A stretch of 64,000 nucleotides of DNA, from the NCBI GenBank assembly GCA_963832025.1, contig CAWHSF010000003.1, positions 79,665 through 143,664 on the forward strand. Direction: 5' to 3'. This document shows positions 2,333 to 54,531 of this stretch, piece after piece. The first letter of the stretch is position 1; each line of letters begins with the position of its first letter. A program made the translations under genes and the position numbers. Under the pieces are notes generated by a model. The model worked only from the letters and a program-made list of their open reading frames with translations. It searched no databases and was not told the DNA's origin. The stretch comes from Candidatus Nomurabacteria bacterium (GTDB lineage: Bacteria; Patescibacteriota; Minisyncoccia; Phycocordibacterales; UBA9973).

Positions 2333-2369
<37 letters not shown>

Positions 2370-11454: not shown

Positions 11455-11461
11455 AAAAAAT

Positions 11462-20097: not shown

Positions 20098-20206
20098 AAA
20101 ATAATAAAAAATTTCTAGAGGAACGCGACCAGAAATTAAAAACAATTTATAAAAACTAAGCTTAATTAAGCTATTTAGTAATCATAGCGAAAAACTTCAT
20201 GAAGTC

Positions 20207-20266
20207 ATGTGGATAACCCTCCAGACGTTGGACGTCTGTAAGCTTACAGACGTCCAACGTCTGGAG
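20207..20266. repeat. catgtggataacc flank plus perfect 48-nt palindrome (20219-20266)
   Basis: ctccagacgttggacgtctgtaag|cttacagacgtccaacgtctggag. An identical copy sits at 35289-35336. Confidence 0.95.
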
Positions 20267-20613: not shown

Positions 20614-21111
20614 TTATTTTTCCAAGGTAATCGTGGCGACGTTTTGGGAAGTTCCACAGTCTACCATGAACGTTGCGGGCAACTTTGCGCTGGAAAGTTG
20701 AATGATTTTAAAGCCATAAGCTTTAATGCTGAATACTGAACCGATGTGCACGGTACGTGCAACCGGAGCGCGGTTATCAACCATTAAATATGCATTGTTT
20801 TTGAAAATTAAGTTTGAAGGGCTGGCTAGAGCCTGACAATTGGTATCGAGCTGGAGACGAGCATCGGCATATTTTACTAATGCATCTGTATAACTGATAG
20901 AGACAGCTTTACCGGCGTTTATATCACCAGTGGTGGTGTCTTCAGTAGAGGTCGGCGTAAGCGCAGTTTGGTCTGTCGGATTCACTCCGGTGTTATTGGT
21001 CATAACCGAAGAATCTGATATATGTCTAACCCATATAATTAAAGCAATAACGACCACTACTACGACGACTGTCCAAATCCACATATTCTTTTTTTTGTTT
21101 TCTGTTTCCAT
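20614..21111 (-). CDS. membrane-anchored hypothetical protein (165 aa)
   Basis: N-terminal TM helix WIWTVVVVVVVIALIIWV followed by a Thr-rich linker and a beta-rich domain. Confidence 0.55.
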   Translation of the reverse strand: METENKKKNMWIWTVVVVVVVIALIIWVRHISDSSVMTNNTGVNPTDQTALTPTSTEDTTTGDINAGKAVSISYTDALVKYADARLQLDTNCQALASPSNLIFKNNAYLMVDNRAPVARTVHIGSVFSIKAYGFKIIQLSSAKLPATFMVDCGTSQNVATITLEK

Positions 21112-21310
21112 TCACATTTGAAGTAAAAGAGTATTTTTTGCTTTTACTTTATTTAAATAATAATCAAAAACGTTTTTCCCCGTAAGAACCTTGTTATATA
21201 AACTTCTAACGGGATTCATAAAAACTGACCAAACTTAATGATAAACAGTATAAGTATACCATTATTATACATGACGTAGTAGCTTCATGAATATTACACG
21301 AACCGCACCT

Positions 21311-21393
21311 GGGGATAACCTTGAAGACGTTGTACACCTGCTTTAACAGTTGTCCAACGTCTGAAAACAAAAAAGCCCCTTAGGGGGCTTTTT
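21311..21393. repeat. ggggataacc flank, agacgttgtacacctgctttaacagttgtccaacgtct (21325-21362), terminator aaaaaagcccc-tta-ggggcttttt
   Basis: Inverted-orientation member of the GTTGGACA...TGTACAAC family. Confidence 0.85.
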
Positions 21394-21402
21394 ATTTAAA
21401 TT

Positions 21403-21696
21403 TTATTTTCTTTTTTTCTCAAGGTTATAGACCCTACTGGAAAGTTCATCAAGAGCAAACCTGGATGGAAAACGGTCTGCTAAACTAATGATATCGTGAC
21501 GAATGTTTTTATAATTTTGCTGAACTTCAATAAAGTTATTTTCTAGTACATCTAATCGATTTTCCACACTATTAAATCCCTTGGCAACAGAAATGGCTAA
21601 GGAGTCCACTGTTTTGATAAGGGTGTTAACTTTTGAATTTAGATTGTTTTCTTTTGCGACAACCTTTCTCATGTTTTCCATTATACCAATCTTCAT
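21403..21696 (-). CDS. small coiled-coil protein (97 aa)
   Basis: Heptad-like sequence with no TM helix; bounded by repeats. Confidence 0.5.
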   Translation of the reverse strand: MKIGIMENMRKVVAKENNLNSKVNTLIKTVDSLAISVAKGFNSVENRLDVLENNFIEVQQNYKNIRHDIISLADRFPSRFALDELSSRVYNLEKKRK

Positions 21697-21717
21697 TTGG
21701 GGTGCAATTGATAAAAA

Positions 21718-21835
21718 AGTGGATAACCCTCCAGACGTTGGACGTCTGTAAGGTTACAGACGTCCACGTCTGGAGACTCCCCTTTTGGGGTGCTCCTAAG
21801 ACGCAAAAAACCACCCCCGAAGGATTGGTTTTTTG
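21718..21835. repeat. ~118-nt composite: agtggataacc, 47-nt double palindrome (21729-21775, 1-nt deletion), ccccttttgggg...aagacgcaaaaaacc-hairpin-ttttttg
   Basis: Same layout as 22203-22325. Confidence 0.9.
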
Positions 21836-21907
21836 AACTTAGTATATAATGCATCCGCAATTTTATCGTACTTTGTACTGATAAATAATAAGCTGTGATT
21901 GTTTTTA

Positions 21908-22198
21908 TTATGTAACTAACTTAATTCCGACTTTTTCTGCGATTGGTTTTATCCATTCTTCATGTCTATTTATCTGATTTTTTATAGCAGCATATTCTAA
22001 TGTTAAGTCACCTATTGATTTTGCAACAGAATCACTGGAAATAATGACGCCCTGAACGAGCTCTTTTAAATCTCCCAAGTCGCTTTTAACCTCTTCAACA
22101 TCTTTCTTTGAAGCAAGGACGGAAGTGAGTCTATCTATATCTTTATCATCTAACATTTCCCCATTATAGCAACTAAAATGGTTTGCGCAAATTAACAA
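21908..22198 (-). CDS. small coiled-coil protein (start possibly at the internal Met at 22156)
   Basis: MLDDKDIDRLTSVLASKKDVEEVKSDLGDLKELVQG...; bounded by repeats. Confidence 0.5.
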   Translation of the reverse strand: MLICANHFSCYNGEMLDDKDIDRLTSVLASKKDVEEVKSDLGDLKELVQGVIISSDSVAKSIGDLTLEYAAIKNQINRHEEWIKPIAEKVGIKLVT

Positions 22199-22202
22199 AT
22201 AA

Positions 22203-22325
22203 GTGCATAAACCTCCAGACGTTGGACGTCTGTAAGAGTCCGGACGTCCAACGTCTGGAGGGCCCCGTTTGGGGTGGCTCCTCCAAGACGCAAAAAACCA
22301 CCCCGGTAAGGGGTGGTTTTTTGTT
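22203..22325. repeat. ~120-nt composite: gtgcataaacc, 48-nt double palindrome (22213-22260), ccccgtttgggg...aagacgcaaaaaaccacccc-ggtaa-ggggtggttttttg
   Basis: Second copy of the 21718-21835 layout. The terminator hairpin is perfect here. Confidence 0.9.
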
Positions 22326-22369
22326 TCTCGTTTTTTAAGCGAGAGGCTAATAGAATGTTCGACTTTCTA

Positions 22370-25300
22370 TTAGTTATGAATACTAACTGATCCACTTGGG
22401 TAAGCGTATAGTGCAGAACCAGTAGACCTGATGTAGGAGTACCACCAGTTGTAGCAACACTGACTGACGTTACGCCACCGTTGATATCATCCCATACGAA
22501 GTAGCTGAAGTACCAAGACTTACAGAAGCAGTTGCACTTGTACCAAAGGTAGAACCAGTGAAGTTCGCATGAATTTCAAAGGTCTTTGAAGTTACCTGCT
22601 GAGATTCTGTAGTGGTTAGCAGTTGTCAGAACCGAAGACCTTCGGAAGCAGTAGCACTGGTAGTACCAGAAGTGTTTGTAGCAGTGAAAGTTTGCAAGAG
22701 TAACACCGTTAGTATCAGTAAGTGTTACGATCCAGGTGCAGCGATAACTGGAGTTCCACTAGTACCAGCGTTAAGTGAAACACTTAATGGGATTTCACTA
22801 AGAGCGATATCACCACCATTGTCTGCTGTAACAGTTACTGTTCCAAGAAGAACACTGTTTCCGTTGGTAAGAGCTTGAGTTGAAGCATTCAAAGTAATTG
22901 TTGGCTTTGAACCGACAAGAGTAAGATCAGTACCAGGCACTGAAGGAGCTAAGTAAGAAGTAGTACTTCCTGTCTGGTATTGAACATATTCAAGAAGAAT
23001 TTGTCCTGTTGATCCAGAAGCAACACCACCGTTTGTATTGACAGGTCCAAAGGACATGAACACAGGAACAGTGACACCGGAAGGATTGTTAGGAACAAGA
23101 ATGCTTGAACCTGTTGCACCAGTAATAGATGAAACGTATGCAATACCATTGTTAAAGATGCAGAACCTGTAGCAACACCTGGACTATTTAGAGCAACACC
23201 AGTGACACCACTAGTTGCAAGCTTGTAAATAGTTGAAGGAACACCAGCAGCAATAGACAGTTGCACTTGTAGATCCAAGAACCAACGGAGTGGTAAGGTT
23301 TACTGTCAAAGTTGACAGAACCGTGTGCAGTAACTGTACCAACAGCATTAGTACCACCATAGATACCAGTTGTAGTGATAGATTATATTATCACCAGTTG
23401 TAATACAAGTCTACCAGAAGTAGTTGCAATTACAGTTGAACCAGTTGAAGTAAGTCCAGCACCTGAAGTAGTAGCATGCAGTACGTCTCACTTACTCACA
23501 GTCAATAGCAGCAAATTTAAGACCTAGAATAGTTGCTGTACCTGTTGAAGCAACAAAGTTATATGTCTCTTGAGCTGCATTTGTAGCACCAGTACCAGCA
23601 GTTGAAATGTATTGAGCATTAGTTGATGCACTTCCAACAATGTAGGGTAACCTAACGTACCTACGCCGAGTGCATTGTTTGACCGCAACAGTATGTAGGA
23701 GTTAATGGAACTCGTGAGATTGCACCGACAGCTGTACAAGTCCAAGATCTGTAACAAGGTTACCCGTGTTAGTTGAACCTAAGTTAGCCAATGACATTAA
23801 CAGTCTGTGAGCCACCTGCAGGAATAACAAAGTTCGTTGAGAACGTGTTCAGATGCAGTAGGTTGACCGATTGGTGTAATAGTTCCTGGAACACCAGAAA
23901 TGACTCAAAGTTGAGAAGTTAGTAATCGGAGTAAATATGCAACAGTAACTAGCTGTTAGTACCAGTAGTTGAACAGAGGCCAATAATCAAACTGTTAACT
24001 TGAACTGCCTTCAGAAGTACTGTTGTTCTGAAGTGTGAATGAACCAATCTCTGCACCAGAAGTATTTGGACTGATTGTTTGACCCAAGTAACCGGTATTT
24101 GTACCGAGAGTCAAGGAACCAGTCGCAATAGTCATTGCGTTAGATGCTGGGAATGATAATCAGAAGTATTTGTCTGACCAGACGTCATACCTTGATAATC
24201 ACCGACTGGAATGTAAATTCCAGTAGTGGTTGTTCCAACTGGAATCGAGTACCAGAAGTGTATTTAATCCACCGCTATTTACTAGGTCAGCATGAATCTG
24301 GAATGTTCAGTCGTCCCTCCAGCAATAGTAAGGTTTGAACCTGGATTGAATATCAATGGAGTAATCGCACAAGAACCAGCAGTGGTAGAATACTGCATTT
24401 TGGCTTGAGCCAACTGGGGCACCATTGTAGTAAAGAGTAACATTACTCAATGCTGCAATCCAGGGTCATAGTTGTGGTAATACTACAGCATGCTATGCAT
24501 TTGACCAGGAAGTAACTTGTGGAGTAACATAAATCGTATTGACTTTTACATTTTCTCCGTATGAAGCAAAATGAATCCACCAATAGCAACATTGGTTGCA
24601 CCACCAGTAACGTTAGTATGTGAATTAAATGCAGGATCAGTTGAAGCACTAGTGAACCTGGTTGAATCTGGAACAGACCTGCCATTGTTTGAGAGAATAT
24701 TGCTTGGTTTGGACCCAACACTGAAACATTTACGCCAACTTGTGAGTCTGTAACCATAAGGTCAGATGCATTTTGGAGTGAAAGTTGAGCAGTACGAGCA
24801 GAACCATTTACAATATCACCGCGAACTTCAAGAGTTGTAGCACCAGTAATCATAGTATAAGGATTTGAAGTTAAATCAAATGCGATATAACCCATAGAAT
24901 TGATACCAGTTGAAGTTGCGATTTGAACGCCATTTGCGTAAAGTCCAAGATTTGCAAATGAATTTGCTGGAGCTGAACCGATGACATCAAAATTTGCACT
25001 CTTCAACAATACTGAGTGAAGGGAAACAGTTACAGGAGCTGACCAAAGAGATAACGCTGGTTGTTCCAGCTGATAGTTGACTTTTAAAGTGCATGCATCA
25101 CTGTATTTGCCACCAACACTTACTGTTGAAAGAATACCTAAACCACTGTTGATGTAGAAAGAATTACCAGCGACACTTACAGTGTTGGCTGAGCCACCAC
25201 TAACCGTGTAACTAGTAAGAACTACTTGAACTGTAGATTCAGTATTAGGTTGTTGAAGATACGATATCAGCGTGAACAGAAACATCAAGTGAACCATTTA

Positions 25301-27591: not shown

Positions 27592-27637
27592 ACACCCCCA
27601 CACTTTTTGCAAGTCCTTTAAAAAAGTGTGGGGGTGT
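27592..27637. repeat. CCCCCACAC-family hairpin with perfect 17-bp arms
   Basis: acacccccacacttttt (27592-27608) / aaaaagtgtgggggtgt (27621-27637). Confidence 0.9.
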
Positions 27638-27671
27638 GGGACAAGAAAAAAGCAAGGGAATTTTAAGAGAC

Positions 27672-27743
27672 GTTGCTAAAATTTTTTCCTCCTGCACCCT
27701 CCCCTTCGGGGTGGGAACCTCGGAGATAAAAAATTTTAGCAAC
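27672..27743. repeat. 72-nt hairpin: ~21-bp AT-rich stem capped by a GC-rich tetraloop hairpin
   Basis: gttgctaaaattttttcctcc / ggagataaaaaattttagcaac with core caccctcccc-ttcg-gggtggg. Confidence 0.7.
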
Positions 27744-27797
27744 TTCTCTTTTTTAACTTTTATTCTAATTTAAAGAATTGTGTTAAAATATTCCTAT

Positions 27798-30029
27798 ATG
27801 GCAAAAAATAAGAAAAACAATTCCAATGATAAAAAATCTTCCGGATTAAAAACTCAAACCAAACATGGAATTGTCGCAGTCATTTTTTTTGTACTCGCAT
27901 TATTTCTCTTGATGTCGATGTCGGTGTTTAATGTGGCAGGAGTGGCGGGGAAAAATGTTTATCAATTTTTAGATCTTCTTTTCGGATACGGTTACGTTCT
28001 CTTACCAATTCTTTTTATCTTACTCGGAATTTCTTTTATCAAATCAGAAGTGCCAGACATCGGATGGGTTCGCACTCTCTCCGGGATATTGTTTTTGCTT
28101 TCAAGTTTGGGAATTATTGATATCGCTTCCGGTAAAGGTGTCCATGGAGGCGGACTCCTGGGAGAAATTTTATCGACTCCATTTGTCGCGCTTTTTGATA
28201 TTTATGCAAGTTTAATTTTTCTCGGAGCACTCCTCATAATTTCAATTTTGATAATGTTTGACACCAAACCAAACTTCGCGCCATTTTTTGCAAAAATTTG
28301 GTCATTCTTTAAAAAAGAAAAAGGAGAAGAGGCAAATAAATCGGAACTGAACAAAAATGAACTGGAGGAAGTGGCAAAATCTATGCCAGAGGAAGAAGAA
28401 AAAGAAAATGCAAAAGAAAGTGCTACCGATAAAATAAAAAATGCGCTGGGTGTAGGTAAAAAAGCAGAAGAAAAAACAGAAGAGGAAGAAATGCCGATTA
28501 GAAAAAGGAAAAGTACTTTGAGCTCTTATACCCCTCCCTCGATTGATCTTCTCGAAGAAGACAAAGGCAAACCAAACACCGGTGATATCAAAGCGAATGC
28601 AAACATCATCAAACGAACGCTTGCAAACTTTGGCATTGAAGTGGAAATGGATGAAATAACCATCGGACCGACCGTCACCCGTTATGCTTTGAAACCAGCC
28701 GAAGGAGTGAAACTTTCGCGCATCGTAGGTTTGCAAAACGATTTGGCTCTGTCGCTCGCCGCACATCCGATACGTATAGAAGCACCGATTCCGGGAAAAA
28801 GTTTAGTCGGTATTGAAATTCCAAATAAATCAAAATCTATTGTTGGGCTCGCCACTCTTCTCTCCGATGAGAAGTTCCAAAATTCTCCAAAACCTTTGAC
28901 GATTGCCTTGGGTAGAAATATTTCCGGCAAAGCAACTTTTGGGAATCTGGCGAAGATGCCACACGTGCTCGTCGCCGGAACTACCGGTTCTGGAAAATCA
29001 GTAACCATTCACTCCATGATAACTTCCCTACTGTATAGAAATGGCCCAGATGATTTGAAACTCATATTGATAGACCCAAAACGCGTCGAGTTAACTTTGT
29101 ACAATAATATTCCGCATCTGCTGACGCCGGTAATCACCGAAGCAAAGAAAACAATTCTCGCTTTGAAATGGGCAGCCAAAGAAATGGACCGCCGTTATGA
29201 TATCTTGGAAGCCGAATCTGTGCGAGACATAGAGTCTTACCATAAAAATGTTTTTGATAAAAATCCTAAAAAGACTACCAAAAATAGTGATGGAGTAGAA
29301 GAGGAAATAAATGCAGACCGCATGCCATACATCGTCATCATCATAGACGAATTAGCAGATATTATGAGCAGTTACCCGAGAGAGCTGGAAGCTGCGATTG
29401 TCCGCCTAGCCCAAATGTCTAGAGCGGTCGGAATCCATTTAATACTTTCTACTCAACGCCCAGAGGTTAATGTTATCACTGGACTCATAAAAGCCAACAT
29501 TCCAGCCCGCGTCGCTTTGAAAGTTTCTTCACAAGTAGATTCACGCACGATATTGGATGCTGGAGGAGCGGAAAAACTTTTGGGCGCCGGCGATATGTTG
29601 TACTCTTCAGGGGAAGCTCAACCAGAAAGATTGCAAAGCGCATTTATTTCCGAAACAGAAGTAAAAAAAGTGGTGAAGTATTTAGCCGATGCTTATCGTG
29701 ATGAAGTATCCGAAGAAATAACTTTGACTGCAGGCTCTATCTCGGCTGATAAAAGTATTTTTGAAGCTTCACTCGAAGATAATGGCGAAGAAGATGACGA
29801 CGAACTATACGAAGAGGCCAGAGCTTGTGTAATAGAAGCAGGTAAAGCATCCACATCTTATCTGCAAAGAAAATTAAAACTTGGATACGCGAGAGCCGCC
29901 CGACTGATGGATGTACTCGAAGAACGCGGAGTTATCGGACCAGGAGACGGAGCAAAACCAAGAGAAGTGCTGGAAAAAATTGAGCACACAGAAAATGGAG
30001 ACCTGCCTGCCGGCAGGCAGGGAATGTGA
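27798..30029 (+). CDS. ftsK: DNA translocase FtsK/SpoIIIE
   Basis: N-terminal TM helices, Walker A GTTGSGKS, motor domain, gamma winged helix YLQRKLKLGYARAARLMDVLEERGVIGP. TGTTAAAAT extended -10 (27781-27789) lies 8 nt before the ATG. Confidence 0.9.
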   Translation: MAKNKKNNSNDKKSSGLKTQTKHGIVAVIFFVLALFLLMSMSVFNVAGVAGKNVYQFLDLLFGYGYVLLPILFILLGISFIKSEVPDIGWVRTLSGILFLLSSLGIIDIASGKGVHGGGLLGEILSTPFVALFDIYASLIFLGALLIISILIMFDTKPNFAPFFAKIWSFFKKEKGEEANKSELNKNELEEVAKSMPEEEEKENAKESATDKIKNALGVGKKAEEKTEEEEMPIRKRKSTLSSYTPPSIDLLEEDKGKPNTGDIKANANIIKRTLANFGIEVEMDEITIGPTVTRYALKPAEGVKLSRIVGLQNDLALSLAAHPIRIEAPIPGKSLVGIEIPNKSKSIVGLATLLSDEKFQNSPKPLTIALGRNISGKATFGNLAKMPHVLVAGTTGSGKSVTIHSMITSLLYRNGPDDLKLILIDPKRVELTLYNNIPHLLTPVITEAKKTILALKWAAKEMDRRYDILEAESVRDIESYHKNVFDKNPKKTTKNSDGVEEEINADRMPYIVIIIDELADIMSSYPRELEAAIVRLAQMSRAVGIHLILSTQRPEVNVITGLIKANIPARVALKVSSQVDSRTILDAGGAEKLLGAGDMLYSSGEAQPERLQSAFISETEVKKVVKYLADAYRDEVSEEITLTAGSISADKSIFEASLEDNGEEDDDELYEEARACVIEAGKASTSYLQRKLKLGYARAARLMDVLEERGVIGPGDGAKPREVLEKIEHTENGDLPAGRQGM
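30003..30022. repeat. perfect 20-nt GC palindrome cctgcctgccggcaggcagg
   Basis: Self-complementary. Encodes the last ftsK residues (LPAGRQ) just before the stop. Confidence 0.9.
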
Positions 30030-30030
30030 T

Positions 30031-30402
30031 ATGAATACCAATGCAAAAAAAATAGTAAAAATAGGAGGTATGACTATTTTTTTTCTGGTAATTATACTTT
30101 ACGCTTTTTTTCGCTCAAGGGATTTGATTTTCGGAGTACAAGTCATGAATGTAGACATAAATGGAGCACCAATACAATCAGGAGCCACTATCACCGACAA
30201 CACAGTAGAGATAACCGGTGTCGCGAGAAATGCAATAGATTTAACCTTGGATGGCCGAGCAATATCGGTGAACCAAGCCGGAAATTTTGATGAGACAATT
30301 GCGCTTCTGCCGGGTTATAATATAATCAATATTAGAGCAAAAGATAAGTTTGGACATGTGGATGAAAAAAATTATCAATTAATGCATGTTGTAGGGCAGT
30401 AG
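30031..30402 (+). CDS. membrane-anchored hypothetical protein with Ig-like fold (123 aa)
   Basis: Start at MNTNAKKIVKIGGMTIFFLVIILYAF (TM helix); the longer ORF-track start overlaps ftsK. Confidence 0.55.
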   Translation: MNTNAKKIVKIGGMTIFFLVIILYAFFRSRDLIFGVQVMNVDINGAPIQSGATITDNTVEITGVARNAIDLTLDGRAISVNQAGNFDETIALLPGYNIINIRAKDKFGHVDEKNYQLMHVVGQ

Positions 30403-30479
30403 TTACTTTTATTCAGGTCCTCGGTCCTCCGGGGCCCCACACCCCGGCCAGACCATTCATAAAAGCAACTACTACCCTA
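30392..30479. repeat. ~88-nt imperfect hairpin: 28-nt AT-rich arms, GC-rich core ccgggg-ccccaca-ccccgg
   Basis: tagggcagtagttacttttattcaggtc / gaccattcataaaagcaactactacccta. Overlaps the stop codon at 30400-30402. Confidence 0.7.
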
Positions 30480-30489
30480 TAACTAAATA

Positions 30490-30649
30490 TTTTTAAATTC
30501 GTTGAAGGTGTAGTTTTTGAGAGACCTTGCGCAGGTCATTCGACTCTGAGAGTCTCAGACTCGAATGAGCGGGTAGCCGAGCAGGAACAAATTTTCAGCA
30601 GAAAATTATGTATGTCGAGCAAAAACTATACCGAGAAAGAATTTAAAAA
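30490..30649. other. 160-nt nested inverted-repeat element directly upstream of recA (MITE-like or structured 5' region)
   Basis: Termini tttttaaattc / gaatttaaaaa and tagtttttg / caaaaacta. Inner hairpins gacct-tgcgc-aggtc and cattcgactctgagagtctcagactcgaatg. Confidence 0.55.
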
Positions 30650-30660
30650 ACGTAAATTAT

Positions 30661-31709
30661 ATGCAAAAGAAAAAAGAAAAGAAGGCGGACAAGACAATGG
30701 GAGGTGAAGATGCGACAGTTTTAAATGACACCCTGAAAGCTATCCAGACAAAGTTTGGAGAAGGCGCAATCATGAAATTTGGTGATTCTCCAAAAGTGGA
30801 TATCAATGTCATCCCGACCGGTTCAATCGGACTGGACATGGCGCTCGGTATCGGTGGAATTCCTCGAGGGAGAATCATTGAAATATTTGGACCGGAATCT
30901 TCCGGAAGACTACCCTTTCACTGCACATCGTGGCCGAAGCGCAAAAAAAAGGTGGTGTCTGCGCATACATTGATGCTGAACACGCCATGGATCCGGACTA
31001 TACAAAAAAACTCGGCGTCAACATAAATGATTTACTTATTTCTCAACCGGACAACGGCGAACAAGCACTGGAAATAGTAGAGAGTCTCGTGCGAACAGGA
31101 AAAATTGATGTCATCGTGGTGGACTCGGTAGCTGCGCTCACCCCCAAAGATGAAATTGAAGGAGATATGGGAGCATACCATGTCGGCAAGCAAGCGCGCC
31201 TGATGTCGCAAGCGCTTCGCAAATTGACCGCCATCGTCGCCCGTTCGAAAACTGTCGTAATTTTCATCAACCAAATACGCATGCAAATCGGAGTGATGTT
31301 TGGCAATCCGGAAACGACTCCCGGAGGAAAGGCTTTAAAATTTTATACTTCGGTTCGACTCGACATTCGCAAAATTGCGCAGATTAAAAAAGGAGAAGAA
31401 GTCGTCGGCGGACGCACTCGGGTGAAAGTGGTGAAAAACAAAGTTGCCGCACCATTCAAACAAACGGAATTTGATATCATTTACAACGAAGGCATTTCCA
31501 AAGAAGGCGAATTGATGGCCTTGGGAGAAAAATATAAAATCATTGAGAAAAGTGGCAACTCATACTTTTATACACCCGCGGGTGAAGGAAAGGAAAAGAT
31601 AAAATTGGGTGTTGGTTACGATTCCACTCGAAAATTCTTGAAAGAAGAAAAAAAGATTTCCGAACAAATCTTAAAAGAAATTAAAAAGAAGTTTGCGGAA
31701 GAGGCATAA
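30661..31709 (+). CDS. recA: recombinase RecA (apparent -1 indel in the P-loop codons near 30904)
   Basis: GPESSG then a frame change, then [50 protein letters not shown]. Restoring one A in tccggaa(a)gact gives GPESSGKTT. Confidence 0.9.
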
Positions 31710-35285: not shown

Positions 35286-35346
35286 ACCCTCCAGACGTTG
35301 GACGTCTGTAAGCTTACAGACGTCCAACGTCTGGAGGTTTATCCCC
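35286..35346. repeat. perfect 48-nt palindrome (35289-35336) plus gtttatcccc flank
   Basis: Identical to 20219-20266. Lies ~35 nt upstream of the rpsF start. Confidence 0.95.
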
Positions 35347-39798: not shown

Positions 39799-39820
39799 AT
39801 GAACATATTACCACAAAATA

Positions 39821-39870
39821 CACCTCTCCCCAACCCCTCTCCTTGCCAAGGAGAGGGGCAAGGGTGGGGT
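39821..39870. repeat. 50-nt GC-rich palindrome ...cccctctcc-ttgccaa-ggagagggg...
   Basis: A relative lies inside ileS at 46949-47006. Confidence 0.85.
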
Positions 39871-39874
39871 TTAA

Positions 39875-41143
39875 TTAGAATTTTAGAATCTTCAAAAACT
39901 TGGATTTATCTTTAAAAGGCCCGATGAGCGCCATATTTAACTTGTCATCTTTAAAAATCTGCTTGGCTAAGTTTTGAATTTGCAGAGCCGTGACTTTGCG
40001 TATTTCGGCTGATTTTTCTTCTATATTTTTTAGTTCACGTTTCAAAAGTTCCTGCCCACCATAAAAATTGGCGATATCATCGCTAGACTCCAAGGAAAGT
40101 TTCATGTTGCCGATTATATATTCTTTCACTTTGTTCAATTCTTCTTCGCTTATTTTTTTTGTTTTTAATAAGTTGCATTCAACTAACACCGCTTTTATTA
40201 CTTCTTCAATTCTTTTATTATCTACGCCGGCAGAAATTTGAAAAAAGCCGTGATCCGTATAAGCATCGTTATAAGCGCGAACATAGTAACCGACGCCCAT
40301 CTCTTCGCGCAGTTTTTGAAACAGGCGCGAGCTCATTCCTCCTCCGAGTGCGCAACCGAGTACGGAAAGTATCGCGTTTTTTTTATCAAACAAACCATAA
40401 CTGCGAACTCCTAAAACAAAATGAGTTTGATCGGTCTCTTTGAATTTCAGCAAAACCTGCGGGCGAGTCTGAATTTCTTTTACTTTCAATTTGCCTTTTT
40501 TCTTGCCGCGGGAAACTTTTCCAAAAATTTTATTTACCTCATTCATCACCTCACGCTCCGTCACCGCTCCGGCGACGACTAGCACGGTTGCCTCCGGCAA
40601 ATAATGATCTTTTTTATAAGCAACAAAATCATCCCGTTTCATTTCTAAAACATTTTTCTTTTCACCGGCAATGTTCCACCCCGCAGGCTGGTCACCATAG
40701 AGTAACTGCATCAACAAATCCTGGACGTGCCTCTGAGGCACGTCTTCATACATATTTATCTCCTCAATAATCACACCTTTTTCTTTTTGCATTTCAGCTT
40801 CCGGAAAAGTGGAATTTAAATAAATATCGGAAATAATATCAAAAATTTTATGGAAATGTTTCGCGTCCGATTTGGCATAATATCCGGTATATTCCTGCGC
40901 CGTGAAAGCATTGTACTGACTGCCGAGCGCGTCCAATTCCTTTGATATATCAATTGCTTTTGGTCTTTTTATCGTCCCTTTGAAACACATATGCTCCAAA
41001 AAATGTGAAATTCCGTTCACCTTTTTTGTTTCGTATTTTGAACCGGCTTCAACCAGAACCAATACCGTCGCTGTCGGATTGTCTTTCATTGGTATCGTTA
41101 CAACACGCAATCCGTTTTTTAAAACTTTTTTTGAGAATTTCAT
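39875..41143 (-). CDS. M16-family zinc peptidase (pitrilysin-like)
   Basis: Inverted zinc motif HFLEH plus a downstream Glu region. Confidence 0.8.
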   Translation of the reverse strand: MKFSKKVLKNGLRVVTIPMKDNPTATVLVLVEAGSKYETKKVNGISHFLEHMCFKGTIKRPKAIDISKELDALGSQYNAFTAQEYTGYYAKSDAKHFHKIFDIISDIYLNSTFPEAEMQKEKGVIIEEINMYEDVPQRHVQDLLMQLLYGDQPAGWNIAGEKKNVLEMKRDDFVAYKKDHYLPEATVLVVAGAVTEREVMNEVNKIFGKVSRGKKKGKLKVKEIQTRPQVLLKFKETDQTHFVLGVRSYGLFDKKNAILSVLGCALGGGMSSRLFQKLREEMGVGYYVRAYNDAYTDHGFFQISAGVDNKRIEEVIKAVLVECNLLKTKKISEEELNKVKEYIIGNMKLSLESSDDIANFYGGQELLKRELKNIEEKSAEIRKVTALQIQNLAKQIFKDDKLNMALIGPFKDKSKFLKILKF

Positions 41144-41579: not shown

Positions 41580-42896
41580 TTAGATTTTTTCCTTGATATA
41601 ATTTTTTAAATCGGATACTTTTACCCTCTCTTGTTTGCCTGTGTCACGGTCGCGAACAGTCACGGTGTCGTCGGTAAGTGTGTCAAAGTCAATTACGATG
41701 CAAAATGGTGTACCAATTTCATCCTGACGGCGATAGCGTTTGCCGATATTGCCATTGTCATCCCAAGCAACTCTTCCGAATTCTGCTTTGAGTAGAGCGT
41801 AAACTTTTGTTTTAGCATATTCCACGAGTTCTGGTTTATTTTTTAAAAGCGGAGATACTGCGCAAATAACCGGCGCAATACTCGGTTTAAATTTTAAATA
41901 GGAACGAATTTCGTTTTCTTTCTTCGTCTTCCGTATATGCAGACAAAAGCAAAACAAGCACGGTGCGATCCACACCAAAAGTCGGTTCTATCACGTGCGG
42001 AACCATTTTTTCGGAGTTTTCTTCGTCAATATATTCGAGTTTGTGTTGTTTTAAATCAAAATCCGTACGATAGGCAAGTCCAAAAAGTTCTTTTCTGCCG
42101 AAAGGAAAATCAAATTCAAAATCAACTGTGCGGCTAGAGTAATGCGCCCTATCTTCTTTCGCCACCTCAAGCTCGTGGACCTTACTCATATCTATACCTA
42201 CTTCTTCCATCCAATCCAGCATCTCCCCTTTCCAGTATTCAAAATATTTCTCCCAATCGGTCGGGCGAATAAAATACTCAATTTCCATTTGCTCAAATTC
42301 TCGAGCGCGAAAAATGAAAATCTCGCGGAGTAATTTCATTTCGAAAAGCTTTGCCGATTTGCGCCATGCCAAAAGGAAGCTTCGGATGAAAAGCATCCAC
42401 AGTATTTTTAAAATTCACAAACATCCCTTGCGCGGTTTCTGGACGCAGATAAGAAGTCGCACTGGAATCATCGGAGTGCGCCGACTTTTGTCTGAAACAT
42501 CATGTTAAATTGTCTGGCTTCACCTAATTTTCCGCCACAATTTGGACATTTGATTTTATCTTTTTCTATTTGGTCTGCGCGAAATTTCGAATGACATTTT
42601 TCACACTCCACCATAGGGTCAGCGAAGCCAGCCACGTGACCGGACGCTTGCCAGACTTCTTGACGCATCAAAATTGCCGCATCCACGCCATACATATCCA
42701 TCCTGCTATCGACAAATTTTTTCCACCAATTTTGTTTAATATTATTTTTGAGAGCCACACCGAAATGCCCCCAATCAAAAGTGCCTCCGAGCCCTCCGTA
42801 AATTTCCGAACCTTGAAAAATAAATCCTCGCCTCTTGCAAAGCGAAACTATTTTTTCCATCAAATCATTTTTATCTCTTTTTTCTTCTTCTGCCAT
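41580..42896 (-). CDS. glyQS: glycine--tRNA ligase (dimeric GlyQS type), 3 apparent frameshifts
   Basis: [13 protein letters not shown]; [23 protein letters not shown] readable only in a shifted frame near 42400-42465; [14 protein letters not shown]; C-terminal anticodon-binding block. Breaks near 42465, 42320, 41925. Confidence 0.85.
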
Positions 42897-46134: not shown

Positions 46135-49100
46135 TTATATTTTCTCAATCTTTACCTTGAAAAGCAAATCGTCGATTTTGATTTCTTCGCCATCTGTCGG
46201 TCCATCTGGGCCAACTTTTATTTCGCGAGCATTCAAAGCCTTCATTAATGATTTTTCATCACTTTTTATTAAATTCTCACCAGCAGGACCAGTCGCACCA
46301 CTAATAATAATGATATCACTTGGTATAAGATTTTTTTCTTTCCTTATATCTTGAAGTGCACGTATAAATTCACGACGATTTCCTTCTAATTTAAGTTCTG
46401 GCGTCATATTTGTGTTTAATGTATAAAATCCTGTACCTGTATAATTTTTTACATTTATTTCTTCTTTGATAATTTCAGCATAACTACCTAAGACTGCTGG
46501 TCCCGTCGCTTCAGAGAGAACTTGTCGAACTGGAATATTTTTTTGCTGTCTTTCTTTGAGCAAAATGGAAACACTATCCCTTGCTTGCGCCATTTTTTCA
46601 ATCGCTTCTCTATCAACTTTCTCCGCTTTAGGCCAATTTTCTAAATGCACGCTTTCTTTATTTTTTTCATTTTTTAATTTCAACCAGATGTCTTCTGCAG
46701 AAAATGGAGCAAATGGAGCCATAACTTTTGCCAGAGTTTTTAACACAAAGTATAGAGTTTGCTTCGCCTCTTTGTCTCCTTCTTTAATTCTTTCTCGAGA
46801 GCGCCGTAAATACCAGGTGGATAGGTCTCCAACAAAATCACGAATCGCACGTGTGGGTTCAAGTAATTTATACTCATTTAAATTATCAGTAGAAAGTTTT
46901 ACTAATTCATTCAATCTAGCCAAAATCCACTGGTCTAGAATATTTGACTTCTCCCCCGACCCCTCTCCAAAAAGTTTTTTGGAGAGGGGTGAAGGGGTGA
47001 GGTGGGTTTCTTCTAAACTTTTATCTCGATAAAGTTCGTAAAATGCCAAAACATTGTAAAGTAATCCAAAAACTTGCTGGTGTAAAAGAGAAACAGTTTT
47101 CTCATCGAAGTTTTTAGATTCTCCCGGCTGATTGACGGAATACATCCACAAACGAAGCGTATCCACGCCATATTTATCCATTGCACTCCACGGATCCACA
47201 ATATTGCCGAGTGATTTGGACATTTTCTTGCCTTTGGCATCAAGCAGGTGCCCAAGACAAATCACGTTTTTATAGGCCAATCCCCGCCCCATCAAAACTC
47301 CAACGGCGTGTAAGGTATAAAACCATCCTCTGGTCTGATCTATCGCTTCAGAAATAAAATCTGCCGGATATCCCGCTCCATCCACCCATTTTTTGTTTTC
47401 AAAGGGGTAATGGTCTTGCGCAAAGGGCATGGCGCCAGAATCGAGCCAAACATCCATGACTTCTTTGGTGCGTACAAGATTTCCTCCGCATTCACAAACA
47501 AGCTTTACTTCGTCAATGTATGGCCGATGCAAATCAAGCTCATAATTTTCGTTGTGAGGAATTGGGATAAAATCTATCTTGTGAAGTTCTGCAGTTTTGT
47601 CGTGACATTCTTTATCAAAAATTTCTTCTGAGCGTTTTTTATTTGCTCCTTCGACAACGGCTGGAGCAACTTCGAGTGAAAAACCATGAGATACAATTAG
47701 AATATTTTCATTTTTATACTTTTCTTCGAGTTCATATAAAAACTTTCCGATTCGATTCTTGGCATCTTGGAAGCTTTCACCTTCTGGATTTTTTACATCA
47801 AAATCCCAACCATTTTCTGTCATGTAGTTGTTGTATTCACTACCGTGTTTGCCAGAAAAATTTCCAAATCCGAATTCACGAAGTTCATCTCGAAAAATTA
47901 TTTCATCTTTAGGGAAGCCTATCTTGTCAGAAATAATTTCAGCTGTTTCTTTGGTCCGAAGAAGTGGTGAAGCAAAAATCATTGCTATTTTTTTGCTGGA
48001 AAGTTCTTTCGCGTGCTTTTCTGTTTCCAAGCGCCCTTTGACAGTAAGAGGATAGACGCCCAATTCATCTGAATAAATATTTATTACATTGTTTTCTGCT
48101 TCGCCATGTCGCATGACAAAATATTTATTGCCAGATTTCTTGGTTTTTTGCTTCAGTTCTTCCACACTCCCGACAACTTCAAGCTTTTTACATTTTTCAC
48201 AAGCCCAAACCGGAAGCGGAGTGCCCCAGTATCGTTCGCGTGAGATTGCCCAATCTTTTATCTCGCGAAGCCATTCGCCAAAACGCCCATCGCGGATATG
48301 TGAAGGTTCCCAATTTATTTTTTTATTCTCGGCAATCATTTTTTCCTTGATTTTCGGATCGGAAACTTTGATATACCAAGAATCTCGTGCGTAATAAATA
48401 AGCGCGGTGTGGCAACGCCAACAATGCGGATAGGAGTGTTCATATTTTTCTTTTTTAAACAAAAGTCCGCGGTGCGCCAAATCTTTGATGACATCCACCG
48501 CCACTTCTTCGTCGCGAACAAATCTGCCTTCAAATATTCCGGTCCCTGCCAAAAATTTTCCATCCAGGCCAACCAAATGATGTTTTGGCAAACCAACCTT
48601 TGTTCCCAACACAAAATCATCTTGTCCATACATCACTGCCGTATGCACCACGCCGGTACCGTCTTCGGTCGTGACAAAATCTGCCGGATAAACTTTGTAA
48701 GCCTTTTCCATTTTATGCTTCTCGGTTTCAAAAATCGTGTTTGAGAGAAATGGGTAAAGCGGTTCGTATTCCAGGCCAATCAAATCTTTGCCTTTCATTT
48801 CTTCTATAATTTCATATTCGCCTTCAACTATAGAAAGTCGTGCCTTGGCTAAAATTAAAATTTCATTTCCAACTTTAATTTTTACGTAATCAAGTTTTTC
48901 TCCCACAGCCAGCGCCACATTGCCCGGCAGAGTCCAAGGAGTTGTCGTCCATGCGAGAACATAGGTGTCGTCAGTCGCCGCAGAAGAATTCTTCGGCATT
49001 ACTCCACCCTCTGGGCGGAACCTTCCGCCTTCAGAATTCTTCTGCGGCGACGCGACGACTTTAAATTTTACGGTCACCGACAAATCTTTCACATCTTCAT

Positions 49101-49695
49101 ATCCTTGCGCAAGTTCGTGCGAAGAAAGAGAAGTTCCGCATCTTGGGCACCAAGGCACAACTTTATAATCTTTATAAAGTAATTTCTGTTCATTTATTTT
49201 TTTTACAATATTCCAGACCGATTCAATGTAGCTATTATGATAAGTGACATATGCGTTTTTTTGGTCTACCCAATATCCAATACGCTTAGTAAATTTATTC
49301 CAAACTTCCAGATATTCCCAGACAGATTCTTTACATTCTTGGTTGAATTTCGCAATACCGTATTCTTCAATTCCCTTTTTTGAATTCAAGCCAAGTTTTT
49401 TCTCCACCTGAAGCTCTACCGGCAACCCTTGCGTATCCCATCCACCTTTTCTACGCACATGAAAACCCTGCATCGTTTTATATCGCGGAATCACATCCTT
49501 AAATGCTCGCGCTTCTAAATGGTGTATTCCTGGCTTGCCATTTGCTGTTGGCGGACCTTCGTAAAAAATAAATTCTTTTTCCCCTTCCGTTTGCTTTAGA
49601 GATTTATCGAAAATTTTATTCTCTTTCCAAAATTCCAAAATGCGTTCCTCGCGCAAAGCAGTCTCACTTTTTTTGTTTTCTAGATTTTCAGCCAT
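46135..49695 (-). CDS. ileS: isoleucine--tRNA ligase with an inserted histidine-phosphatase domain and two palindromic-element inserts
   Basis: PTANGKPGIHH, editing-domain WTTTPWTLPGN, KMSKSLGN, Zn-type CxxC pairs. 1186 aa. Confidence 0.9.
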   Translation of the reverse strand: MAENLENKKSETALREERILEFWKENKIFDKSLKQTEGEKEFIFYEGPPTANGKPGIHHLEARAFKDVIPRYKTMQGFHVRRKGGWDTQGLPVELQVEKKLGLNSKKGIEEYGIAKFNQECKESVWEYLEVWNKFTKRIGYWVDQKNAYVTYHNSYIESVWNIVKKINEQKLLYKDYKVVPWCPRCGTSLSSHELAQGYEDVKDLSVTVKFKVVASPQKNSEGGRFRPEGGVMPKNSSAATDDTYVLAWTTTPWTLPGNVALAVGEKLDYVKIKVGNEILILAKARLSIVEGEYEIIEEMKGKDLIGLEYEPLYPFLSNTIFETEKHKMEKAYKVYPADFVTTEDGTGVVHTAVMYGQDDFVLGTKVGLPKHHLVGLDGKFLAGTGIFEGRFVRDEEVAVDVIKDLAHRGLLFKKEKYEHSYPHCWRCHTALIYYARDSWYIKVSDPKIKEKMIAENKKINWEPSHIRDGRFGEWLREIKDWAISRERYWGTPLPVWACEKCKKLEVVGSVEELKQKTKKSGNKYFVMRHGEAENNVINIYSDELGVYPLTVKGRLETEKHAKELSSKKIAMIFASPLLRTKETAEIISDKIGFPKDEIIFRDELREFGFGNFSGKHGSEYNNYMTENGWDFDVKNPEGESFQDAKNRIGKFLYELEEKYKNENILIVSHGFSLEVAPAVVEGANKKRSEEIFDKECHDKTAELHKIDFIPIPHNENYELDLHRPYIDEVKLVCECGGNLVRTKEVMDVWLDSGAMPFAQDHYPFENKKWVDGAGYPADFISEAIDQTRGWFYTLHAVGVLMGRGLAYKNVICLGHLLDAKGKKMSKSLGNIVDPWSAMDKYGVDTLRLWMYSVNQPGESKNFDEKTVSLLHQQVFGLLYNVLAFYELYRDKSLEETHLTPSPLSKKLFGEGSGEKSNILDQWILARLNELVKLSTDNLNEYKLLEPTRAIRDFVGDLSTWYLRRSRERIKEGDKEAKQTLYFVLKTLAKVMAPFAPFSAEDIWLKLKNEKNKESVHLENWPKAEKVDREAIEKMAQARDSVSILLKERQQKNIPVRQVLSEATGPAVLGSYAEIIKEEINVKNYTGTGFYTLNTNMTPELKLEGNRREFIRALQDIRKEKNLIPSDIIIISGATGPAGENLIKSDEKSLMKALNAREIKVGPDGPTDGEEIKIDDLLFKVKIEKI
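46949..47006. repeat. GC-rich palindrome cccctctccaaaaa-gt-tttttggagagggg with flanks, inside ileS
   Basis: Family of 39821-39870. Encodes ...LTPSPLSKKLFGEGSGEKS... Confidence 0.8.
48974..49051. repeat. 78-nt palindromic element with perfect 19-bp termini inside ileS (GTCGCC...GGCGAC family)
   Basis: gtcgccgcagaagaattct (48974-48992) / agaattcttctgcggcgac (49033-49051). Inner hairpin ggcggaa-cc-ttccgcc. Exactly 26 codons. Confidence 0.9.
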
Positions 49696-49727: not shown

Positions 49728-51391
49728 TTACATCTTTCTTGGAGCCTCTATGCCCAGGAGATGTAAGCCATTTTTCATCACAAAAGAAAACGCATAAGTC
49801 AGAGCTACTTTGTATGGAGAAGTTTCGTCTGCTTTATTTACGATTACATTGTTCCCATAAAAACTATTGAAGGAGCGAGCGACTTCGATTAAATAGTTTG
49901 CAATATGATGCGGTTCGTATGCAGATACAGAACGAGCGACAACTTCTGGAAACTTATACAACATTTTTTCTACTTCAAAAATTTCATTTGGAACATTTTC
50001 AAAATCTGGAATAATATTTTCCTTTTGCGCTTTTTCTAAAACAGAATTTGCTCGAGTGTAAGAATACTGCAAGTATGGACCGGAGTCTCCTTCAAAAGAA
50101 ATAGATTTTTCAAAATCATAAATTATATCTCCGCCAATTCCCTGTTTTAATATTGAATACTTGATTGCAGACACCGCCACCGCAGAAACAATACTTTCTC
50201 TTTCTTCTTCGGAAAATTCTCGGTCGCTCATTTTTTGAAATACTGCTTCTCGTGCATCAGCAATCAATGATTCTCCAGTAACTGCATTCCCTTTTCTAGA
50301 GCCCATCTTGCCAGTAGTTAACCTCATCATGCCGTGCGTGATGTGTTTCATTCTATTTTCGAATTCTGGATAAATTAGAGAAAGGGCTTTTGCCACTACG
50401 CGCATATAGTCCGCTTGTTCGTTTGCCGTAATGACAATAGACAAATCCATGTTTGGTTCAGTTTTAAACTTTTCTTCACTCAAACCGAGTTCTTTTGTCT
50501 CATAAGTCGGCAAGCCCGCAGATGTGATAAAAACTCTTGTATGCAGTTTCGGATCATGTTTTTCGGCTTTAAAGACAACTGCTCCATCAGATTCCTCAAA
50601 AACTTTACCCATGTTATCCTGAACAATGTCTCGGCCGATATCTGCCATCGCGCTTTCTAAAAAGTAATAATCAAATTTTGTGCCAAGCATCTTATATAAG
50701 TCTTCAAAAGCTTCCATCGTCACTTTAAAACCCCAGTCATAAACTTGATTTACTTCTTCGTCTTCTCTCTTGTAAATTCTTTGGTTCAAAATATCAATTT
50801 CTTTTTTGGCTTCAGGGTCTTCCTCGTAGGCTTTACACCTAACACATAAGAGTCTCCAATATATTGCGCGAGAATGGCAACAGGGGCATCCATATCTTTC
50901 GGCATCCCCTTTTTCTGCATACCATAAAACGCTTTGGCCACATGAAGTCCAACATCTCCTTGATAATTTGCACGCGCGACATCTGCCCCAGCGTGTTCTA
51001 AAATTCTGGCGATGGATTCGCCGATGGCGTTTGTCATCAAGTGACCGATATGAAAAGGTTTGAAAGGGTTCGGGTCGGTATATTCAACCATGAATTTTTT
51101 TCCTTTCATGAGATTGTTTTTCCCGACATCTGCCCCTTTACCCAAAATTTCTTCAATACTTTTACTAAAAAATTCGCGAGAAAGATGGAAATTTATAAAC
51201 CTGTCAATTACTTCTATCTTTCCTATCTCAGATATCTTATGTGTGTCTAGTTTTTTGAAATATTCTTCCGCGTTTTCGGAGGTTGAGATAAAAGTATAAT
51301 CGCCATTCTTTATGTCTTTGGGATGCACCAAAACAAAATCTCCTTCGATTTTCAAAATTTCTTTTATCCAATTTTTTATTTTGTCTTCCAT
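49728..51391 (-). CDS. argS: arginine--tRNA ligase (one apparent frameshift near 50800)
   Basis: PFHIGHLMTNAIGE (HIGH) and a DALR-type C-terminus. Restoring one A in gtaaa(a)gcc joins ...LGVKAYEEDPEAKKEIDILNQRIY... Confidence 0.88.
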
Positions 51392-53326: not shown

Positions 53327-54531
53327 TTAATTTCTTTGTGAACTTTGTTCTTTTATTTTTTTATTATCTTTATTTTTGAGCGTCATAATCATGAGCTCTG
53401 CCACACGTTTACACTCTTTCTCTTTAAATCCACGCGTCGTAATTGCCGGTGTGCCAAAACGAATACCGGAAGGATCCATCGGCTTGCGGACATCGCCCGC
53501 AATTGAATTCATGTTTAAAGTAATTCCAACTTCGTCGAGCACTGTCTGCGCTTCTTTGCCGGTCACCCCCAAAGAACCAAAAACATCAGCTAAAATAAGG
53601 TGATTTTCAGTTCCGCCGCCAATCATCCGAATTTTATTCTTCTTAAATACTTCTGCCATTGCTTTAGCATTTTTCAAAATTTGCTTTGCATATTTTTTAT
53701 ATTTTGGCGTCATCGCTTCTCCAAAAGCCACAGCTTTGGCAGCAATCGTGTGCATATGTGGACCACCTTGAATTCCTGGGAAAATCGATTTATCAATTTT
53801 TTTTGCAATCTCTTCGCTTTCACGAGTAAGAATTATTCCTCCGCGCGGACCACGAAGTGTTTTGTGTGTAGTGGAAGTGATAATATCAAAACCATCATCA
53901 AACGGATTGCGAAGAACTCCGGCTGCAATCAGACCTGCAATGTGTGCCATGTCTGCCATGGTGACAGCTCCTACTTCATGCGCAATATCTGCGAATTTTT
54001 TATAATTCAAAGTTTTTGGATACGCAGAAAATCCAGCCAAAATTATTTTTGGTTTATGTTCTTTAGCAAGTCGGCGAAGATTTCATCATAATCAATTTCT
54101 CCCGTATCAGGATCTTTCATTTTATATCCGATAAATTTATATATTTTGGCAGGCAGGGTGAGAGGATGTCCATGGGTAAGATGTCCGCCATGGGACAAAT
54201 CCATGCCGAGTACTGTGTCCCCTGGTTCCAAGAGTGCAGCATAAACAGCTAAATTTGCGGGTGCGCCGGAATGCGGTTGAACATTGGCATATTTGCATTT
54301 AAATAATTTACAAACACGTTCAATTGCAAGCTTTCGACTTGATCGGTCCAGTCTTGTCCCCCATAATAACGACTGCCCAGGATACCCTTCGGAATATTTA
54401 TTTGTGAAAACAGAACCATTAGCTTTTAATACATCTTCTGAGACATAGTTCTCGGAAGGGATGAGTTCTAATCCTTCCGCTTGTCTCTTTTCCTCACCTT
54501 TTATTAACTTTTCAATTAGTTTGTCATGCAT
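53327..54531 (-). CDS. glyA: serine hydroxymethyltransferase (one apparent frameshift near 54050)
   Basis: SENYVSEDVL, GGHLTHGH, TTHKTLRGPRGG. TAGTAT lies 6 nt upstream of the ATG. Confidence 0.9.

Follow-up and report, generated by a model that had tools for sequence, protein, structure and literature searches.

The 64,000-nt stretch of a Candidatus Nomurabacteria genome analysed here (hereafter the window) contains, within the gene for isoleucyl-tRNA synthetase (IleRS), ileS, a 78-nt palindromic element that is carried in frame and belongs to a family of hairpins that we designate type A. We argue that type A is probably a dispersed, non-autonomous hairpin repeat of Nomurabacteria/Paceibacterota, selfish or neutral in nature and comparable to the Rickettsia palindromic elements (RPEs), and that its copy in ileS is translated as a loop that IleRS tolerates. 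The host gene and the parts of the element are located as follows:

46135-49695, minus strand: host gene ileS, encoding an IleRS of 1186 amino acids (aa), in which the insert corresponds to codons 215-241
48974-49051, coding strand minus: 78-nt type A palindromic element, encoding SPQKNSEGGRFRPEGGVMPKNSSAAT
48974-48992: left arm, 19 nt, with the plus-strand letters GTCGCCGCAGAAGAATTCT
49033-49051: right arm, in plus-strand letters 100% complementary to the left arm
48967-49059, minus strand: whole hairpin, 93 nt, in which GTCGTC/GACGAC extends the 19-bp arms past two small bulges
48995-49029, minus strand: helix P2, in which 48995-48998 pairs with 49026-49029 (3-4 bp) and which encloses the core
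49002-49020, minus strand: apical hairpin P3, coding strand UUCCGCCC-AGA-GGGUGGAG, 8 bp with one G-U pair and a triloop

The palindrome of 78 nt with perfect 19-bp arms, which had been predicted from the letters of the window, is borne out, the arms being separated by a spacer of 40 nt, and the 19-mer GTCGCCGCAGAAGAATTCT occurs in the window at the two arm sites only, as compared with 0.01 matches expected from shuffles. As an RNA, the coding strand of the element folds with -66.2 kcal/mol (z = -11.5 against dinucleotide shuffles), and the covariance-model match on ileS covers the same 93-nt extent with 93.8 bits. P3, whose other strand reads CTCCACCC-TCT-GGGCGGAA, is backed by folding as well as by covariation; an invariant GGAAGG stands 5' of it on the coding strand, and all three base pairs of P2 covary among the copies. 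The inner end of the left arm, AGAATTCT, is the RAATTY palindrome conserved throughout the family, and the outer part of the arm is unique to the ileS copy. The original prediction had placed a different inner hairpin, GGCGGAA-CC-TTCCGCC, at the centre of the element. This hairpin is indeed present in ileS, but it is P3 that is conserved in the sister copies instead; the predicted hairpin competes with P3, cannot form in the purH copy and was rejected as a conserved feature. The ileS hairpin has no trailing U-run and is therefore not an intrinsic terminator.

Pfam assigns the 1186-aa open reading frame (ORF) to the class I tRNA synthetases and finds an anticodon-binding domain in it; its nearest solved structures are those of IleRS 8c8u and 1ile, and it is intact across the element, with SPQKNSEGGRFRPEGGVMPKNSSAAT followed directly by DDTYVLAWTTTPWTLPGN; NSEGGRFRPEGGVMPK is an example of the peptide predicted from a translated element (ileS/purH). 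That the insertion is in frame and lies just before the WTTTPWT block is borne out by this open frame together with orthologues in which the site is empty. Going by the names that its homologues bear, the organism belongs to the Patescibacteria, near Candidatus Nomurabacteria/Paceibacterota. No insert is present in the four IleRS sequences nearest to that of the window (75-83% identical in the N-terminal half), which run KFK-AKGQE-NTYILAWTTTPW; locus L004, which carries the orthologue P0001, supplied the DNA of the empty site, and BLASTP alignment of the window IleRS with P0001 leaves one clean gap of 25 residues. The element thus does comprise 26 codons, as had been claimed, whereas the net gain with respect to the nearest orthologue is 25 residues and not 26.

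The position of the insert is the tip of a beta-hairpin, 8 residues ahead of the WTTTPWT editing motif. In the solved IleRS 8c8u, VTVKFKV (ending at residue 211) is followed by D(215)NEYFLGWTTTPWT, and the site corresponds to a 3-residue turn before the Thr-rich editing motif. The segment was not found in IleRS of lineages free of the repeat, the solved IleRS structures having a 3-residue turn there. An AlphaFold2 model of IleRS residues 1-514 (mean predicted local distance difference test score, pLDDT, of 84.6) has strands at 199-213 and 244-250; secondary structure is absent from residues 220-240, whose pLDDT is below 50, and the ten-residue blocks following the insert average about 90-98. 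Mapped in this way, the insert is predicted to form a floppy, disordered loop at the hairpin tip. The notion that one of the arms had been copied from the ancestral target was unsupported: what the arms encode, SPQKNS and PKNSSAAT, differs from the ancestral KAKGQENTY.

A hairpin scan of the window with spacers of 20-70 nt returned matches resembling the ileS element at 9904-9983 and 10511-10596 (both in purH), at 27665-27750 (intergenic) and at 30388-30483 (3' end of an ORF). The arms of the scanned hairpins are all different, and their centres fall into two types, A and B, of which type A is represented in the window by ileS and by the copies at 9904-9983 and 27665-27750:

9688-11514, minus strand: purH, with an in-frame element of type A at 9904-9983 and another, of type B, at 10511-10596
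9898-9990, minus strand: sister type A copy in purH (9904-9983 in the hairpin scan), in frame, peptide NFSSGRVHPEDGGKLKN; 95.3 bits
27661-27755, minus strand: diverged type A copy, located in a spacer that separates divergent genes; 46.4 bits with the covariance model

Written on the strand that is coding in ileS, type A reads ..RAATTYT-(3 bp)-GGAAGG-TTCCNNCC-RGA-GGNNGGAG-KAA-(3 bp)-ARAATT.., with GGAAGG-TTCCNNCC-RGA-GGNNGGAG as its core. RAATTY makes up the inner arms; the outer arms, different in every copy, remain self-complementary throughout. The taxonomic and host-protein census of the family rests on DNA pattern matches. In the genomes of 185,579 species the pattern GGAAGGKTCCNNCCNGAGGNNGGAG had 7 matches, with complementary arms only at 3, which lie in metagenome-assembled genomes (MAGs) of Nomurabacteria/Paceibacterota, and in JGI metagenomes it had 12, among which the 8 with arms represent 5 distinct elements; a protein search with the doubled type A peptide alignment gave no match at E up to 10. 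Nine copies could be aligned without gaps, and the covariance model built from this alignment (model R1) recovered the three copies in the window (ileS, purH and intergenic) as well as a second copy in locus L006 beside the first. All 31 invariant columns of the alignment fall within the core and the inner arms. Across the nine copies the three-helix structure leaves 90% of cells paired versus 37-49% with slid partners, and double-sided changes are seen at 19 of the 33 pairs; the observed values were reached in 0 of 500 shuffles. Comparison of all elements with Rfam, both at gathering thresholds and with E values of up to 10, gave no match, and resemblances to tRNA, signal recognition particle RNA, K-turns and hammerheads that had been judged by eye are unsupported by this search.

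The claim that the ileS element belongs to a repeat family is hence upheld by sister copies in other genes and in intergenic DNA, both in the window genome and in its relatives. The mark by which the original prediction recognized the family, the GTCGCC/GGCGAC termini, is a different matter. These termini are common to ileS and to the purH element at 10511-10596, but they are all that the two have in common, model R1 being blind to the latter, and the orthologous purH element of a sister genome (L085) starts with ATAGCC. Since the termini differ in every other copy, family membership is set by the conserved core.

By DNA search alone, 10 distinct type A copies were found, 8 of which lie within long ORFs, and all 8 of these (the second L006 copy being the eighth) are read through in frame with no stop. 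They are hosted by IleRS, by PurH (twice), by a class I LeuRS-like synthetase, by DNA polymerase III delta', by an FAD-linked oxidase and by a CCA-adding/poly(A) polymerase-family enzyme, the last with two adjacent copies, one per orientation. The two PurH copies possibly share one ancient site; over about 7 independent events the frame would be kept by chance alone with a probability of about (1/3)^7. In the common orientation the peptide reads ..KNS-x-GGRFxPExGG-x-KN.S.. and in the other ..NSS-x-LHPxGGTFR-x-NSS...

The insertion sites are occupied repeatedly. At the same IleRS hairpin, an insert of at least 12 aa is found in 12 of 121 sequences, more than at any other position of the N-terminal half, and the inserts comprise at least 3 different cores. 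Palindromes are likewise found in the DNA of the IleRS inserts of loci L001, L002 and L003, their arms being unrelated and their cores being of type A in one case and of type B in two. PurH orthologues (n = 120) range in length from 521 to 601 aa, two loops being insertion hotspots, and between RADDAAKF and ADLENAVAYSDSF more than half of them carry some insert. The inserts at this PurH loop are of type A, in either orientation, or of type B, or consist of a short SDVGRPDSGRPTSEL, which, when back-translated by hand, would correspond to a translated hairpin of the GACGTTGGACGTC family described below.

Turnover at these sites can be followed in the sister genome represented by L085, whose PurH is 80% identical and which comes from the same sample, and we infer from the same genome, as L004. 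At purH site 1 it shares the type B element, where the arms show a double change from G-C to A-T in at least one pair. The type A element that it carries at site 2 has wholly different, perfect 20-bp arms and is preceded by a remnant that resembles the left arm of the window's element. L006 has two adjacent type A copies, and adjacent copies occur also in the PurH orthologue P0166. In L086, the arms align with those in the window, but the core does so only as its reverse complement (score 17 vs -6). The inner RAATTY arms constitute direct as well as inverted repeats around the core, which makes inversion of the core in place plausible; the L086 case is suggestive only, because its arms are purine-rich and of low complexity.

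We propose that the element was inserted into ileS after the split from the nearest sampled relatives, or else was precisely lost in them. It would persist because its length keeps the frame, because the frame in use is free of stops and because the site, where the CP1 editing domain is entered, is the tip of a beta-hairpin on the surface. Its product would be a flexible loop of ~25 residues rich in Gly, Ser, Pro, Asn and Lys that IleRS tolerates and that does nothing for the enzyme, the element itself being selfish or neutral DNA filtered by selection. A conserved core flanked by arms that need only to pair points to recognition of a folded single strand, and it may be speculated that the elements are mobilized or maintained as folded single-strand hairpin DNA by HUH Y1 enzymes of the RAYT/IS200-like kind (RAYT, REP-associated tyrosine transposase; REP, repetitive extragenic palindromic sequence). 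Existing hairpins might attract further insertions or exchange with new ones, as L006, P0166 and the L085 remnant suggest, and the core might invert between its arms. The hotspots would reflect selection for the few permissive loops, which in combination with attraction by hairpins and core inversion would account for the repeated occupation of the same sites. Two RAYT-like genes lie in the window:

4192-4851, minus strand: RAYT-like Y1 HUH transposase gene, bracketed by GCGTTAGG-N5-CCTAACGC hairpins at 4178, 4877 and 5952
19414-20145, minus strand: second RAYT-like gene, adjoining the GACGTTGGACGTC palindrome at 20219-20266

Their products are paralogous (37% identical), match Pfam Y1_Tnp with 38.3 and 22.8 bits, and by eye both have the NHFH variant of the HUH motif. 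A tblastn search for RAYT-like genes in the loci that carry type A found none, those loci being short.

A number of observations weigh against this proposal. There is no clear target-site duplication, at most a 3-nt GCG repeat as judged against an 81%-identical orthologue, nor is there a common target motif in the flanks of the type A copies, and the outer arms are unrelated among copies, unlike those of a recently amplified MITE family (MITE, miniature inverted-repeat transposable element). The insertion is only 8 residues from the Thr-rich editing-site motif and may affect editing, and we infer translation of the ileS insert from its open frame alone. The two RAYT-like genes score 43 and 27.7 bits with the NCBIfam model for REP-associated tyrosine transposases (REP_Tyr_transpos), far below its 80-bit cutoff, and the hairpins that flank them belong to other families, not to type A or type B. 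Strong covariation and a conserved core could, in addition, mean a host function.

A host function might reside in the nucleic acid itself, as an mRNA element that tunes expression through protein binding or RNase III cleavage, or as a DNA hairpin acting in replication or repair, with the peptide as a mere by-product. This would be in keeping with the conservation of GGAAGG and GGAG-UAA, in the core and internal loop, while all three helices covary, with the fold z-scores of the elements (-7 to -11.5), with an excess of G-T wobbles over A-C mismatches on the GGAAGG strand (8 vs 3, outside one conserved U-G), and with the retention of copies, including compensatory changes, at orthologous positions of genomes that are ~80% identical. 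However, the copies sit in unrelated host genes, the closest orthologues are without the element, and the presence of both orientations at one PurH site is ill-suited to a signal specific to the mRNA strand. Moreover, the copy with the most wobbles (L006) is antisense to its host gene, and a G-T excess that is seen also in a host-antisense copy hints, on small numbers, that it is the element's own strand rather than the mRNA that folds. Considering also that neither an Rfam match nor a U-run, and hence no intrinsic terminator, was found, we deem selection of the structure by the host improbable. It might instead be the peptide that matters, as an adaptive module whose recurrent loop (..KNS-GGRFxPExGG-KN..) lends a binding site or a localisation signal to housekeeping enzymes. 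Most coding copies do conserve the motif in one frame, and the same surface loops are reused across many lineages. Yet the reverse orientation gives the unrelated LHPSGGTFRE, at the same PurH site as well as in L006, intergenic copies exist, the peptide is predicted to be disordered, and several unrelated hairpin families share the loops; as the nucleotide level accounts for the conservation no less well, an adaptive peptide seems unlikely to us.

The remaining explanations would do away with the loop or with the palindrome altogether. Candidate-phyla bacteria are reported to have rRNA-gene insertions that the mature rRNA lacks, and by analogy the ileS element could be an intron or intervening sequence excised at the RNA level to leave a mature IleRS without the loop, the long terminal helix serving to join the two junctions in space. 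Against this, all coding copies found by DNA search keep the frame and avoid stops, which would be needless if they were excised, no ribozyme or intron family was matched at E up to 10, and cutting of the RNase III type would leave the mRNA unligated; we therefore hold excision to be very improbable. An artefact of assembly or sequencing might be suspected given that essential genes in the window (ArgRS, RecA, SHMT) are split by frameshifts that suggest indel errors. Nevertheless, the ORF runs intact through the element, equivalents are found in independent assemblies and samples (the orthologous purH copies of L085 and the IleRS inserts of L001-L003), and indel errors do not create structured palindromes of 78 nt with a family-specific core, so that an artefact is scarcely credible. 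A dispersed repeat that is translated as a tolerated loop is the explanation that we favour.

Type A is one of several hairpin families in the window. Type B, whose core is TCAGGTCCTCGG..CCAGACCATTC, is represented by two copies:

30388-30483, plus strand: type B copy, whose core is found also in the IleRS inserts of L002 and L003
10511-10596, minus strand: the purH element of the original prediction, with a diverged type B core, in frame in purH, peptide FPQSLGTSLRSATPSEKH

The former overlaps the end of the ORF at 29911-30402, to which it supplies the last residues and the stop codon, and is followed by a 42-nt imperfect inverted repeat at 30478-30661. The type B pattern also had 61 matches in viral contigs, none of them with flanking arms, and these were dismissed as chance. 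A REP-like family, GACGTTGGACGTC (a hairpin of 5-6 bp with a TGG loop), is plentiful in the intergenic DNA of the window, with 21 matches versus 0.55 expected, occurring singly and as perfect inverted pairs, for example at 17176-17225, 20219-20266, 22212-22261 and 35288-35337; several of its hairpins lie in a region of 3.3 kb (21100-24450) that has no ORF longer than 112 aa. Yet another family, CCCCCACAC..GTGTGGGGG, occupies intergenic spacers at 6005-6080, 19373-19407 and 27592-27637.

It is tempting to view all of this as one system, hitherto undescribed, of the Patescibacteria, in which several hairpin families would be recognised by their folded cores instead of their ends, moved as single strands by RAYT-like HUH enzymes, directed by homing into existing hairpins, subject to flipping of the core, and translated, in other words a REP/RAYT-type system operating in coding sequence. 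We offer this wider proposal tentatively and with considerable doubt. If true, such a system would be a standing source of loop variation in IleRS, LeuRS, PurH and the CCA-adding enzyme.

IleRS itself carries a second in-frame palindrome, of another family, at 46951-47003 on the minus strand (aa ~897-915; CCCCTCTCCAAAAA / TTTTTGGAGAGGGG, peptide PSPLSKKLFGEGSGE), where the window IleRS is ~10 residues longer than that of T. thermophilus; this family recurs between genes at 39816-39876. The orthologue P0001 has PLPSPLLSGEGEGE at a different IleRS site. In the window IleRS, a histidine-phosphatase domain (His_Phos_1) is found at aa 526-685, between the catalytic and the C-terminal parts, and most IleRS homologues of Patescibacteria also carry it; a literature search returned no paper joining IleRS and histidine phosphatase. 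In many homologues, including the closest one, P0001 (L004), the ORF ends at ~aa 760 and unrelated genes follow, and IleRS may be split at this position in such homologues.

The Rickettsia palindromic elements are reportedly the subject of studies by Ogata et al. from 2000 and 2002. Type A resembles them, as well as the protein-coding palindromes of Wolbachia, in consisting of small, dispersed, non-autonomous palindromes with long stem-loops, in being both intergenic and inserted in frame into conserved housekeeping genes, in the presence of several families per genome and in the reduced genomes of the hosts. RPEs are translated in frame in Rickettsia proteins, and the Rickettsia gmk protein that carries one is made and active, the insert being tolerated and not required (PMC2229807, PMC10969869). 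In contrast to RPEs, type A has a host of another phylum, among the Patescibacteria, and a length of 78-95 nt versus 105-146 bp; what it conserves is a central core together with the inner RAATTY arms, each copy having outer arms of its own, the protein loops that it occupies are struck repeatedly by different families and in both orientations, and RAYT-like genes are present in the same genome. The suggestion that the ileS element is of the RPE kind is therefore sustained in that a stem-loop with terminal repeats is found in frame in conserved genes and in intergenic DNA, which makes the element RPE-like in behavior without classing it as an RPE.

The likeness to REP sequences, their clusters (bacterial interspersed mosaic elements, BIMEs) and RAYTs consists in hairpin repeats recognised by their structure, in two RAYT-like HUH Y1 genes that lie beside hairpins, and in the clustering of elements; the single and inverted-pair arrangement of the GACGTTGGACGTC family is that of REPs in BIMEs. 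However, REPs measure 20-40 nt and are extragenic by definition, whereas type A, which is not a REP, measures 78-95 nt, folds into three helices and lies mostly within genes, where it would be translated; it is also without a conserved terminal tetranucleotide, and no RAYT gene flanked by type A was found. ERIC/IRU, the 107-bp Correia element and YPAL form long stem-loop transcripts and occasionally in-frame fusions (PMC2229807), and in both respects type A is similar. Those MITEs have conserved terminal inverted repeats, TA duplications and parent insertion sequence (IS) families, unlike type A, which is not a classical MITE: its termini are not conserved, it shows no clear duplication and it has no known parent IS, none with matching ends being present in the window. 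Palindrome-associated elements derived from IS200/IS605 differ as well, in that type A is one symmetric hairpin and its 5' flanks have no common motif. The IS200/IS605-derived elements have distinct left and right subterminal hairpins and insert 3' of a fixed tetra- or pentanucleotide. Finally, in mitochondrial genes of Nematomorpha there are perfect inverted repeats of up to 284 bp within coding genes, both arms being translated (PMC6649704); they are organellar and, unlike type A, do not appear to form a dispersed family with a conserved core. Our literature search on the candidate phyla radiation, Patescibacteria and Parcubacteria yielded no description of in-frame palindromic or MITE elements, its coverage being incomplete and such absence no proof.

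Until now, protein-coding palindromes have been regarded as peculiar to Rickettsia and Wolbachia. The same behavior in free-standing candidate-phyla bacteria suggests that they are a general outcome in small genomes rich in hairpins, with several unrelated families and strong hotspots that affect ~10% of IleRS and more than half of the PurH orthologues in this clade. In practical terms, such inserts inflate and fragment the gene calls of Patescibacteria MAGs, disturb alignments and phylogenies, and mimic lineage-specific "signature inserts". The type A family also represents a natural experiment on which enzyme loops tolerate insertions of 25 residues, and could serve to test the mobilisation of intragenic hairpins by RAYT-like enzymes.

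Several other features of the window deserve mention. The motif TGTGGATAA(C) has 7 exact occurrences, at 4163, 5999, 19364, 20208 and 26523 on the plus strand and at 32376 and 42989 on the minus strand; in reverse complement the motif gives the DnaA-box consensus TTATCCACA. Four of these sites (4163, 5999, 19364 and 20208) were inspected, and at each the motif directly adjoins an intergenic hairpin that lies between one gene's end and the start of its neighbour; it might be a promoter or regulator site or a part of the repeats. Several essential genes are each broken into a pair of ORFs lying in different frames, at 49728-51391 (arginyl-tRNA synthetase, ArgRS), 30661-31709 (RecA), 53327-54531 (serine hydroxymethyltransferase, SHMT) and 41580-42396 (a class II aminoacyl-tRNA synthetase), reflecting either indel errors of the assembly or genuine frameshifts or pseudogenes. 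An Rfam match to 23S rRNA at 1-2871 (minus strand) spreads model positions 1-2195 over 2871 nt, an excess of ~676 nt. ARAGORN found no tRNA; inside the 23S match there are two Rfam tRNA matches above threshold, at 1167-1278 and 1454-1521, both of which end in CCA and one of which has an insert of ~40 nt, and the whole looks like tRNA genes inside an rRNA insertion or like a fragmented 23S gene.

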